From the NCBI GenBank assembly GCA_900543885.1, contig UQTA01000001.1:86395-150394 (forward strand): a stretch of DNA of 64,000 nt, written 5' to 3'. The notes under the pieces are model-generated. The model was not told where the DNA came from and ran no database searches. It saw only the letters and a list, made by a program, of their open reading frames with translations. Numbering within the stretch: position 1 is the first letter of the stretch; every line of letters begins with the position of its first letter. Shown here in pieces: positions 3,381 to 35,595 of this stretch. Source of the stretch: an uncultured Clostridium sp. (GTDB taxonomy: Bacteria > Bacillota > Clostridia > Lachnospirales > Lachnospiraceae). The position numbers and the translations under genes were made by a program.

Positions 3381-3487
3381 ACTGGATCTCCTTTCTACAA
3401 AAACAGCTCCGGCAGACTAAAAACCTGCCGGAGCATATTTCTCTGTTACTGTTCATTCATTGCATGACCAGCAATGGAACAGCCTGA

Positions 3488-7237: not shown

Positions 7238-7304
7238 ATTTGCTTCCTTTCAAAGATGTTTCGCTTTTATACGGTATCTATATCGTAACAATCCAGCCTT
7301 GCAT

Positions 7305-8653: not shown

Positions 8654-8774
8654 AAATAATAAGGGGACATTTTTCAGAATTAGGTAGACATTTTTTAGAT
8701 AATTTTCCGTTGCTGGTCATGCAACGCATAAACAGTAACCATTTTTCATTCATGAAGAATACTGAGGATCTTTA

Positions 8775-21182: not shown

Positions 21183-21375
21183 CTATGAAAGTCCCGGACG
21201 GCAGCCGCGAATGAGCCATGCTTGCATGAGCGAATTCACGGGTATCGGACGGGCAAGCCGGTATGAGCAAGGAGCGCGATAGCGCGGATTGCGAATGCTG
21301 GCGACGATTGCGGGAGCACCAAAGGTGCGGAGCAATCGGCTTTCATGAATGGTGATGCCTGCGTCAGCAGGCATG
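21183..21375. repeat. GC-rich REP-like element with short palindromic units
   Basis: gagcgcgatagcgcgg (21272-21287) and gcctgcgtcagcaggc (21357-21372) recur as gagcgcgcagcgcgg / gcctgcggcagcaggc at 1076-1106; the GC content is far above that of the flanks. Confidence 0.45.
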
Positions 21376-21387
21376 TCCGTTTAGTTA

Positions 21388-21440
21388 CAGTTCAGCCTGG
21401 CATCTTCTTGACCGCTCGCAGCGGACAAGAAGATGCCAGC
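21388..21440. repeat. Partial copy of the 151-bp palindromic MITE-like repeat (left terminus + core palindrome)
   Basis: gttacagttcagcc...cttcttgaccgctcgcagcggacaagaag. Confidence 0.5.
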
Positions 21441-25265: not shown

Positions 25266-25335
25266 GTCCGCTTGTCTAGTACATATTGCAATATTTGTCT
25301 TTATACAAGAAGATGCAAGGCTGAACTATAACGAA
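25266..25335. repeat. Partial copy (right terminus) of the MITE-like repeat
   Basis: ...cttgtataaagacaaat...gatgcaaggctgaactataac. Confidence 0.4.
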
Positions 25336-25441: not shown

Positions 25442-27136
25442 TTATTTTTCCAGATTTTTCCATTTAAAGTTTGGAACTACATCAGACCATTTATTAATAC
25501 CGATCAGGGATTTTGCAAATTCGCTTGCTTCTAACGTAGCGTTCTTCTTATCAATATCCCTGAATACCTGCCAGATTTTTCTCCGCTTAGTGGCTTCGAT
25601 CAGGTTTGGTTTGCTCATATCACACTCCCATAAGCCTAATTTCAGGCCATTCTTTGCTTCAGAAGGAGCATCCACCTGACGGCTTAAAGTATAGGCATCA
25701 ATATATGGGTTGCTGTCTACCAGATAATAGGAATAAGCAAAAGCAGCTGCCTGAAGCTCTGGAACATCTCCTCTGGTAGGACTGTAAGCAGTGAATCCCT
25801 GTTCTGTAAGGATAATATGGCGAACATGGCCGGATGGTGTCTTTAATGTATCCTGGCAGAAATAATCAGTCAGCACATTTAAGTTGGCAAAATTAATAAC
25901 CGGTGAGTTAAAGTCGTTTTTGACCAGGCCTGTTGTCTCTGCGTCATCCCAGAATACTGGATCTGCCAACGGGCATGGATATGGATGATATGCAAGTCCC
26001 CACTCCATCTGTCCCTGATTATTTGCAATTGAGTTAAAACTGTCTATAATCTCTTTGCCGCCATATTTTAACTTTCCGTCCATTTCATTCATCCAGTTAT
26101 AACCAAGGGAAAGATATACACGGTCATTTGCATTGGTGCTCTTAATAGCTGTGTAGCATACGCGGAATGCCTTTTCATAGGTTTTTACATAATTAGTCAG
26201 ATCCATGGGACCCATATAATTCCATTCCTGGTTTTCAATTTCATTTCCAATGATCCAGTTGGAAACTTTACCATAATTAGCATTTTTGCCGCTGTAATGG
26301 TCTGCCAGGAATGCAGAAATGGCCTTCAGCTGTTCAAATCCTGCTTCATTGGTAGCATTAAACATATAATAATATGCGCTGGATGTTTTCTCCACTCCAG
26401 GAATAAACAAATTGGAAGTAGAATCACTCCAGTCATTTAAAAGAATAGCGTTTACAACCATTCCCTTTCCTGAATAAGCACTGATGATCTTGTCATAGTC
26501 TTCTACAATTCCCTTATTGAAATGATATGTTTTGCCTTCATACTGGAAATCAATCCCTGAACCCATCAATCTGGATACTGCAATATTGGTAGTAACATAT
26601 TTAACACCTAGATCAAAGGCATCATCTAACATGTTCAGCTCAATATTCAGGCCCTTTTTAGTAAGGGGTTCCTTAAATGCATCTGTATTCTTTGCCACGA
26701 CCTCCGGATTTGTAATATAATGGTGCTCGCTGACTGCTTTGTAAGCTCCGTTTTCTTTCACTGCCAGCACAAATTTACTGTAAAGGCGGTCAGATCCATC
26801 ATTACATTTAAAAGGGACCGTAACTGTAGTGGAACCAGTTGCATCCGACGAAGTAAGATAATCGCTGCGGCTTCCAAGGTCATCTTCATAAGCAGACTGC
26901 TCAAATACATAAACTTTGCCATCCGTTCCCTCTGTACTGCCGCTGCTGTTAAAAGCAATCTCAACATTCTGTTTATCATCTGTTATTTTACAGGATGCGA
27001 TCTGCCCGGAAACTTCCGCTGCCAGTGCATCAAAAGCGCTAGTTCCCATCGCTAAAATGCCTGTTCCTAGAAACAGTGCTGCTGCACATAAAAGGCCTGT
27101 AAGCCCTGCTCCTTTTGAACCTTTATATTTTCTCAT
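25442..27136 (-). CDS. Secreted TIM-barrel glycoside-hydrolase-like protein (family not resolved)
   Basis: Signal peptide/TM (LTGLLCAAALFLGTGILA); WIIGNEIENQEW motif typical of GH clan A catalytic NE; start chosen at MRKYKG. Confidence 0.45.
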   Translation of the reverse strand: MRKYKGSKGAGLTGLLCAAALFLGTGILAMGTSAFDALAAEVSGQIASCKITDDKQNVEIAFNSSGSTEGTDGKVYVFEQSAYEDDLGSRSDYLTSSDATGSTTVTVPFKCNDGSDRLYSKFVLAVKENGAYKAVSEHHYITNPEVVAKNTDAFKEPLTKKGLNIELNMLDDAFDLGVKYVTTNIAVSRLMGSGIDFQYEGKTYHFNKGIVEDYDKIISAYSGKGMVVNAILLNDWSDSTSNLFIPGVEKTSSAYYYMFNATNEAGFEQLKAISAFLADHYSGKNANYGKVSNWIIGNEIENQEWNYMGPMDLTNYVKTYEKAFRVCYTAIKSTNANDRVYLSLGYNWMNEMDGKLKYGGKEIIDSFNSIANNQGQMEWGLAYHPYPCPLADPVFWDDAETTGLVKNDFNSPVINFANLNVLTDYFCQDTLKTPSGHVRHIILTEQGFTAYSPTRGDVPELQAAAFAYSYYLVDSNPYIDAYTLSRQVDAPSEAKNGLKLGLWECDMSKPNLIEATKRRKIWQVFRDIDKKNATLEASEFAKSLIGINKWSDVVPNFKWKNLEK

Positions 27137-27192
27137 TCTTTCTGCCTCCCATATTCTGTCCATTTTATGCTGCTATTTATCCCAATATGACC

Positions 27193-27343
27193 GTTACAGT
27201 TCAGCCTTGCGAAGATTTAGGGACAAAAGTACGTTGAAAACTTGTTTTCATAAGTGCTTTTGGCACTAAATCTTCATAAGGCTGACGCCCAAAGCTTCTT
27301 GTCCGCTGCAAGCGGGCAAGAAGCTGCAAGGCTGAACTGTAAC
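27193..27343. repeat. 151-bp highly palindromic MITE-like intergenic repeat, copy 1
   Basis: Perfect 18-bp terminal inverted repeats gttacagttcagccttgc/gcaaggctgaactgtaac; internal palindromes gaagatttag...ctaaatcttc and cttcttgtccgctgcaagcgggcaagaag. Confidence 0.75.
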
Positions 27344-27434
27344 ATATGACCAGCATCGTTTTATTACAGCCTACATCATACATAATCTAACTTATATTTT
27401 CAATTACATTTTTATTACATTATCTTAATTCAGC

Positions 27435-27585
27435 GTTACAGTTCAGCCTTGCGAAGATTTAGGGACAAAAGTACGTTGAAAACTTGTTTTCATAAGTGCT
27501 TTTGGCATTAAATCTTCATAAGGCAGACGCCCAAAGCTTCTTGTCCGCTGTAAGCGGGCAAGAAGATGCAAGGCTGAACTGTAAC
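27435..27585. repeat. 151-bp palindromic MITE-like repeat, copy 2 (tandem, about 95% identical to copy 1, separated by a 91-bp AT-rich spacer)
   Basis: Same termini and core; 5-6 substitutions relative to copy 1. Confidence 0.75.
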
Positions 27586-27623
27586 AATTCAGCTATTGAC
27601 ATTTTTTTCTGTCCGTTTATAAT

Positions 27624-27652
27624 ATTTTTAGACCTTTTGTATCTGCCAATGG
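27624..27652 (+). promoter_or_regulatory. Sigma-A type promoter (TTGACA-16-TATAAT) for the thiW-thiM operon
   Basis: ttgacatttttttctgtccgtttataat. Confidence 0.5.
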
Positions 27653-27654
27653 CT

Positions 27655-27835
27655 GAGACGGTGTGAGGGGGAGCGCCCTGACACTGCGTACAAAAGAAAT
27701 GCGATGGGACTCCGTGTTTCGGATTGAGAGGATGCTAGTGAGCATCGACCGCCAATTACAGCTGTTAGTCGGCGCCATCGCTATGTCTATTTTTAACAGG
27801 ACTATATCAACGCGCCGCAGGTGCGTTTTTTATTA
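27655..27835 (+). promoter_or_regulatory. About 180-nt GC-rich structured leader ending in an intrinsic terminator (acgcgccgcaggtgcgttttttatt): riboswitch-like architecture upstream of thiW
   Basis: Multiple hairpins (gatgctagtgagcatc, cgccaattacagctgttagtcggcg); terminator 27808-27835; gene RBS at 27908. This is the expected position of a TPP riboswitch, but the canonical THI-box order could not be matched. Confidence 0.4.
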
Positions 27836-27918
27836 CCCAATTTTGCATATAGCTGCGGCAGAAACTGATAAACTTTTGCATGGAAAGCCCTCTTTACACA
27901 GCAGAAAAGAGGAGAAAA

Positions 27919-35253: not shown

Positions 35254-35274
35254 GAGGATTTTTTAAATATTTTG

Positions 35275-35402
35275 CTACAGTTCAGCCTTGCGAAGATTTA
35301 GGGTCAAAAGCACGTTGAACATTTCAATACGGCAAATTCCCGCTGCCACTACGTTATCGTACGGCACTTTCGGTTCCAAAAGTGCCTACCCGTGTACAGT
35401 AA
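35275..35402. repeat. Divergent copy of the MITE-like repeat family
   Basis: ctacagttcagccttgcgaagatttagggtcaaaag...gtgtacagtaac; internal hairpin cggcactttcggttccaaaagtgcc. Confidence 0.5.
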
Positions 35403-35595
35403 CATTATGCATTCAGATAATCCAATGCAAACTGTACATAAATGCCGGTACCGTGGAACAGAACATCTTCATCTACATCAAAGGCCGGATGATGATGATG
35501 AGCAGCCGTAATCCCCAGCTCCTTTAAACTGGAAACCAGGTATGCCGTAGTATTTTTTTCTTCATAAGAAAGCTTTGGATGCTGATGCAGAGTGC

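Follow-up and report, generated by a model that had tools for sequence, protein, structure and literature searches.

Paired 151-bp palindromic repeats upstream of thiW as probable insertions of a modular MITE family with ISBst12-type ends in Lachnospiraceae

The window analysed here is a stretch of 64,000 nucleotides from an uncultured Clostridium sp. of the Lachnospiraceae (contig UQTA01000001.1, positions 86,395 to 150,394), and it contains two nearly identical, highly self-complementary repeats side by side in one intergenic region. The locus raises the question of what these repeats are, how they came to lie next to each other, by which enzyme they may have been moved, and whether they matter to the genes on either side. 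An earlier note on this DNA had read them as a tandem pair of a MITE-like element. The evidence for and against that reading is presented below, starting from the two copies themselves.

Two insertions with their own target-site duplications

Copy 1 occupies 27193-27343 (+), with terminal inverted repeats (TIRs) at 27193-27210 and 27326-27343, and copy 2 occupies 27435-27585 (+), with TIRs at 27435-27452 and 27568-27585. The dimensions reported before were confirmed, two copies of 151 nt on the same strand separated by a 91-bp spacer, and so were the perfect TIRs, which are 18 nt long in both copies (GTTACAGTTCAGCCTTGC) and 100% complementary. Two other details had to be corrected. The identity between the copies is 97.4%, with four differences (27266, 27283, 27309 and 27324), and not about 95%. 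Likewise, the internal palindromes, which had been called perfect, are imperfect: the 32-nt arms of hairpin 1 (27201-27285 in copy 1) are 84% complementary and the 15-nt arms of hairpin 2 (27293-27325) are 93% complementary. Folding of the element as a single strand gave -88.9 kcal/mol (z = -13.7) for the + strand and -78.7 kcal/mol (z = -11.1) for the - strand.

The element has no coding capacity. Its ORFs do not exceed 42 aa and none is recorded as a called gene; when the 42-aa internal ORF was looked up for a census of copies, nothing was on record. Terminator and small RNA gene functions, both proposed previously, are unsupported. A T-run follows neither hairpin, so that no canonical intrinsic terminator is present in the element, and the consensus scan detected no sigma-70 promoter inside it. 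Rfam searches of the window at the gathering score and of the region at E ≤ 10 returned no family for the element, the hits to it at E ≤ 10 being microRNA-hairpin noise only.

Around each copy, a perfect target-site duplication (TSD) of 8 bp can be read from the window. Copy 1 lies between two copies of ATATGACC (27185-27192 and 27344-27351), and copy 2 between two copies of AATTCAGC (27427-27434 and 27586-27593). Since the two duplications differ in sequence, copies 1 and 2 are two independent insertions and an origin by tandem duplication was rejected. The term "tandem pair" is thus right in that two copies lie side by side, but misleading as to how they arose.

Apart from the two full copies, the window holds one diverged copy and three fragments, all of them intergenic, as had been claimed. 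The three partial copies previously placed at 21388-21440, 25266-25335 and 35275-35402 are real according to BLAST within the window, but their limits had to be redrawn. The first, at 21384-21439 (-), is a truncated or short copy composed of a TIR and the hairpin-2 module; it shares 92% identity with positions 103-151 of copy 1 and represents the right-end module in inverted orientation relative to it. The second, at 25306-25332 (+), is a 27-nt right-end fragment with 93-96% identity. The third, at 35274-35403 (+), is a diverged element of about 130 bp, with 95% identity to copy 1 over its left 46 nt. Its left end was delimited by BLAST as 35276-35319 and the remainder to 35403 was read by eye; also by eye, its right part resembles that of the 135-bp A subfamily described below. 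A clear TSD was not found around this element. In addition, a degenerate solo TIR-like fragment, GTAACAATCCAGCCTTGC, is present at 7285-7302 (+). Overall, when up to 3 mismatches are allowed, the window contains 8 matches to the TIR, where shuffled sequences would lead one to expect 0.04.

Two other features of the window were recorded alongside these copies. A full-length Clostridiales-1 RNA (RF01699, 121 bits) lies at 21186-21345 (+), and is followed by a small hairpin and then by the truncated copy at 21384-21439. Separately, a 35-nt inverted repeat at 3445-3479 and 8705-8739, 89% complementary, brackets a 5.3-kb operon for a sugar ABC transporter and an epimerase, and its outer 12 nt, GTTACTGTTCAT, resemble the MITE/ISBst12 terminus. 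The operon with these TIR-like borders was considered as a mobile unit, an idea left unsupported as the arrangement is fixed in 10/10 listed strain contigs and has no 8-bp TSD.

A modular family across Lachnospiraceae

The copies are not confined to the window, a case that the earlier note had raised against mobility. The exact 18-mer TIR was found at at least 74 loci of a species-representative genome collection. Among the matches listed, nearly all loci belong to Lachnospiraceae, often with many per genome, and include the genera Lacrimispora, Acetatifactor, Muricomes, Lachnoclostridium, Ca. Limivivens (at least 17 loci) and UBA7179 (at least 9); a few matches look like chance (L047, L062). 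Loci with the family carry several copies per 8-kb tile. A BLAST search of a plasmid collection with the element found nothing, the exact 18-mer had no match in viral contigs, and literature searches, by sequence and for MITEs in Lachnospiraceae or Clostridiales, did not find this family described.

The end pair of the family can be written as GT(T/A)ACAGTTCAGCC ... GGCTGAACTGT[AT]AC. The same TIRs enclose at least four unrelated interiors, named types A and B (both 135 bp), C, and D, the last being the 151-bp element of the window. Type D also occurs in L096 (93% identical, TSD matching at 7/8) and in L016 (77% identical, TSD of about 7 nt by eye). A survey of the window and 0.67 Mb of loci gave 46 end pairs, 29-155 bp in length, whose TSDs agree in at least 7/8 positions. 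Among them, 42 elements are unique, and 28 of these 42 have perfect TSDs. In the control, with flanks taken 20 nt further out, 0 matching pairs were obtained. The TSDs are AT-rich (29% GC vs 45% in the background) and show no consensus. Elements with ORFs on both sides could be classified in 34 cases, 8 more being unclassifiable; 32 of the 34 are situated between genes, which show all orientations, and the other 2 within an ORF.

These duplications bear on a further explanation, namely that the repeats are REP/BIME-like or IS200/IS605-derived palindromic elements (PATE), moved as single-stranded DNA by a Y1 (HUH) transposase. The elements are certainly rich in hairpins, their termini contain TTAC, and the left end of types A, B and C is by itself a 29-nt hairpin. 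REP/BIME and ERIC sequences are, like this family, multi-copy intergenic imperfect palindromes. However, REPs lack TIRs and TSDs and are linked to RAYT (Y1) transposases, and REP/PATE elements make no duplication, whereas TSDs flank all 46 end pairs counted here and none of the controls. In addition, true TIRs are present that match those of a DDE IS group, and the duplicated sequences are not a conserved target motif. An origin of this kind is therefore considered hardly credible, and the MITE reading, supported by the missing ORFs, the perfect TIRs, the TSDs, the dispersal and the site polymorphism between strains, is retained.

Ten unique elements of 29-42 bp consist of little beyond two abutting TIRs, each with its own 8-bp TSD. 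Forms of 29-42 bp were located in L088-L097, L018, L033 and L057, several of them directly before the ribosome-binding site of a housekeeping gene (rpsR, xpt or galE). They may be deletion derivatives or minimal mobile units. Types A, B and C contain an internal direct copy of the right end, which would permit deletions to such short forms.

Correia elements of Neisseria, RUP of S. pneumoniae, bcr1 of the B. cereus group and MITEAba12 are likewise short, ORF-free, multi-copy and intergenic, with TIRs, TSDs and long hairpins, and some classical bacterial MITEs adjoin promoters or sit in UTRs. Their termini, TSD length and host clade differ from those of the present family, which in contrast to them is modular, with at least four interiors, and includes the near-TIR-only forms of 29-42 bp. 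The element is thus a new family within a known kind, and knowledge of how MITEs work is unchanged by these results. The family, which is abundant in gut Lachnospiraceae, causes short-read assemblies to break.

Ends of ISBst12 type

No transposase was found in the window by Pfam. The termini were compared with those of known insertion sequences. IS66-family elements generate 8-bp direct repeats, and their inverted repeats are reported to start with GTAAGCG (PMC11946415). ISDge4, of the single-ORF ISBst12 group, carries GTGACTACTCAGCA / GTAACTGCTCAGCA as its TIRs and makes a direct repeat of 8 bp (PMC12898284), and its transposition is 'copy-and-paste' according to one paper. Ends of ISBst12 type were read from Geobacillus pHTA426, from plasmids of B. 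cereus, Deinococcus and Acaryochloris, and from IMG/VR and metagenome contigs; two of the transposases were chosen for a C-terminal G, the residue that would be encoded by the right end of the MITE.

The 13 elements tabulated have ends GTAACT[AG][TC]TCAG and a single IS66-family transposase each, and 10 of them are flanked by perfect 8-bp TSDs. Where Pfam data are on record, the single ORF carries DDE_Tnp_IS66 together with DUF6444 and, in part, zf-IS66. Such elements occur in Lachnospiraceae: the transposase P0210, whose cluster is found on 143 contigs, is named 'IS66 family transposase [Lachnospiraceae bacterium]' in one source, and its IS measures 1826 bp, with TIR GTAACTGTTCAGAACCCC and TSD AAAAAGAT.

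The MITE termini read GTTACAGTTCAGCC and GTAACAGTTCAGCC, the latter at the right ends of the B subfamily. They match the end of the P0210 IS, GTAACTGTTCAG, at 11/12 positions and the end of the L125 IS, GTAACTGTTCAGCC, at 13/14. With ISBst12-type elements from three phyla and from gut metagenomes, the agreement is 11-13 of the first 12-14 nt. The MITE ends begin with GTTAC or GTAAC, and position 3 also varies in real insertion sequences (GTTAC in the Acaryochloris IS and in L130). Position 6 is T in 13/13 IS and A in most MITE copies, with T in a few MITE-like copies (6767-6899 of L019, and the repeat at 3445 of the window).

It is well supported from these terminal sequences that the MITE ends are of ISBst12 type (IS66 family) at the family level, so that the possibility of a match to an IS family, raised before for the terminal repeats, has found a positive answer. 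The ISBst12 group (ISBst12, ISDge4, ISGka4-family and the P0210 IS) shares with the MITE the 8-bp TSDs and the termini GT(A/T)AC..TTCAG(CC). There are also differences. The IS are 1.5-1.9 kb long and encode a transposase, while the MITE has 151 bp and none; it also has A instead of T at position 6, another inner TIR and an unrelated interior, with no sequence similarity between MITE interiors and the ISBst12-type IS examined. The element is not itself a member of IS66, since it has no DDE_Tnp_IS66 ORF, an absence that is expected for a non-autonomous derivative, and it is ISBst12-like at its ends only.

As to the cognate transposase, the end matches point to a family and no further, and the exact parent was not found. 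An autonomous element with A at position 6 and the inner sequence CCTTGC was sought in the 0.67 Mb of MITE-bearing loci, where no long TIR pair with a TSD was detected. In these loci, the ORFs adjoining unpaired TIRs were housekeeping genes only, and there were no multi-copy ORFs. Scanning metagenomes for a TIR followed by a ribosome-binding site and ATG yielded nothing but the mini-elements of 29-42 bp that precede genes such as rpsR, xpt and galE. The ends of the seven ISBst12-type IS subgroups that were read are related and never identical to the MITE ends.

The missing parent, together with position 6 and the inner CCTTGC, in which the MITE differs from all ISBst12-type ends read, could be taken to mean that the MITE is moved by another family producing 8-bp TSDs (ISL3, IS256, IS1595, IS6 or ISAs1) and that its likeness to ISBst12 is coincidental. 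Elements of those families begin with GG or CAGGG and are not known to begin with GTAAC, and the terminal agreement given above also speaks against this view. We therefore judge this explanation improbable. Instead, the repeats are very probably independent insertions of a 151-bp MITE that belongs to a large, modular family of Lachnospiraceae with ISBst12-type ends.

According to this reading, a DDE transposase of ISBst12-like type, with its gene in another part of the genome, would bind both terminal repeats and insert the element at AT-rich intergenic sites through an 8-bp staggered cut. If the 'copy-and-paste' mode of ISDge4 applies here, copies would accumulate rather than excise. The link to ISBst12 offers a concrete candidate for the mobilisation of these repeats, and ties a large set of orphan palindromic repeats to a little-studied branch of IS66.

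Strain variation, neighbouring promoters and the hairpins

The intergenic region that holds the two copies is flanked by a DUF5722 gene (- strand) and the thiW-thiM operon (+ strand), with thiE beyond the operon on the - strand (all by Pfam). The start of the DUF5722 gene is likely at 27136, as the recorded product has 564 aa. The scan for promoters identified TTGACA-16-TATAAT at 27596-27623 (+), with 12/12 consensus positions, as the thiW-thiM promoter, and its -35 box begins 10 nt past the end of copy 2. A promoter-like site that faces DUF5722, TTGAAA-17-TATGAT, was found in the 91-bp spacer by consensus scan only (27375-27403, -). If the spacer site is used, copy 1 probably lies within the DUF5722 5' UTR, to which it would add a hairpin of about -79 kcal/mol, and copy 2 would set the two divergent promoters apart. 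An effect of the copies on the expression of DUF5722 or thiW is plausible, and their position in the control region of these genes may cause differences in expression between strains.

The thiW-thiM leader is itself unusual for thiamine-salvage genes in giving no riboswitch match. It spans about 250 nt (27624-27879) and contains a terminator-like hairpin at 27809-27827, followed by a T-run, upstream of the start codon. Neither a TPP nor any other riboswitch was matched in Rfam, even when the 311-nt segment was searched by itself at E ≤ 10. It could be an undescribed regulatory leader.

Strain contigs from other samples with an identical ThiW protein revealed two alleles. Copy 2 is present in L078, and also in the contigs L080, L082 and L084, and is absent at its exact site in L075-L077, with otherwise identical flanks; L076 represents 8 more places like it, and the L075 contig occurs in 4 samples. 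Insertion polymorphism between strains, which the earlier note had proposed as a check, was thus observed for copy 2, but the "empty" allele carries a TIR-like insert. In place of copy 2, L075-L077 hold 18 nt, GTTGCAGCAGTTCATCCT, between CTTAATT and ATTCAGC. A 3-nt ATT repeat flanks this insert, which sits 4 nt away from the point where copy 2 is inserted and resembles a TIR variant (compare the left end of the L016 element, GGCAGCAGTTCAGCC). The insert may be what is left of another, independent event at this hotspot. An excision footprint of copy 2 was considered unlikely, since the insert is not TSD + TSD and ISDge4 is reported to transpose by 'copy-and-paste'. A pristine empty site (…CTTAATTCAGCTATTGAC…, …CCCAATATGACCAGCATCG…) was seen for neither copy among the strain contigs.

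Copy 1 adjoins DUF5722 in 8/8 listed related-strain contigs. In two of these contigs of the species, copy 1 is joined upstream to other sequences, to minC in L081 (2819-2944) and to a membrane-protein gene in L083 (710-861), in both cases with no matching duplication. These junctions could be due to recombination between MITE copies or to chimeric metagenome assembly, so that the role of recombination hotspot once suggested for the element is hinted at by them but may reflect assembly chimeras. The same two contigs contain further D-type copies in other contexts, and L081 also has a 101-nt form devoid of hairpin 2, with a solo TIR 7 nt away. Many contigs of this species end within the element. 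The near-identical copies suggest recent activity in this species, and they serve as strain-level markers.

Conservation of the hairpins was studied in the related subfamilies. A covariance model built from the A subfamily recovered 43 full-length A-/B-like elements. In this alignment, which was fitted to the model and in which many changes reflect a single A/B split, 92% of cells are in standard pairs vs 83% in shuffles, and 22/44 pairs are changed on both sides. The covariation score is 0.246 vs at most 0.056 in slid controls, and was reached by 0/500 shuffles. In helix 3, two-sided changes affect 10/11 pairs, and 96% of its cells form pairs. These compensatory changes do not prove selection on RNA, because palindromes can repair one arm from the other. 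Rfam gave no match for ten loci of the related subfamilies. The few D-type copies available in L016 and L096 have decaying hairpins with no compensation, as expected for neutral copies.

The very stable fold, the position in a promoter region and the compensatory retention of hairpins in A and B could all fit a structured host element that was locally duplicated and is not mobile, for instance a small RNA gene, a terminator or insulator, or an operator for the DUF5722 and thiW promoters. The different TSDs of copies 1 and 2 argue against it, as do the occurrence of copies in unrelated contexts and all intergenic orientations, the absence of an Rfam match, an internal consensus promoter and a T-run, and the uncompensated decay of D-type hairpins in other organisms. 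Moreover, the strains devoid of copy 2 (L075-L077) keep the same thiW promoter. A host element of this type is very unlikely, and mobile MITE copies are the far more probable account of the locus.

For the MITE family, it is conceivable, though we would not expect it, that the hairpins are a cis-requirement of ISBst12-type transposition or that some copies have been co-opted as RNA or DNA modules tuning neighbouring promoters or UTRs. What prompts this idea is the architecture of three hairpins that the 135-bp subfamilies A and B retain despite many compensatory changes, together with the position of 29-42-bp forms, with TSDs of their own, right before housekeeping genes. In the case of co-option, the tuned genes at this locus would be DUF5722 and the thiamine-salvage operon.

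Other variable features were noted in the region. A palindromic repeat of another, unrelated kind, with a unit of about 117 nt, occurs once in the window, in the intergenic region between a MerR and an S8 peptidase gene (825-1165). Among L100, L104 and L108, this unit is tandemly duplicated in two strains and partially deleted in another, and the intergenic length ranges from 288 to 459 nt. The merR-family gene of one related strain (L099, 11465-16933) is interrupted, at a place beyond the left edge of the window, by a Mu-like transposable prophage that encodes a Mu transposase, a MuB-like AAA protein and DUF6906; neither the window nor the other strains have this prophage. Finally, the segment 51941-62437 contains an AbiEii toxin gene and a four-gene cluster that encodes DUF2397, DUF2398, a 1347-aa SbcC/RAD50-like ATPase and a DUF3323-DUF2399 protein with a JetD_C match; the cluster looks like a Wadjet-type defence system.
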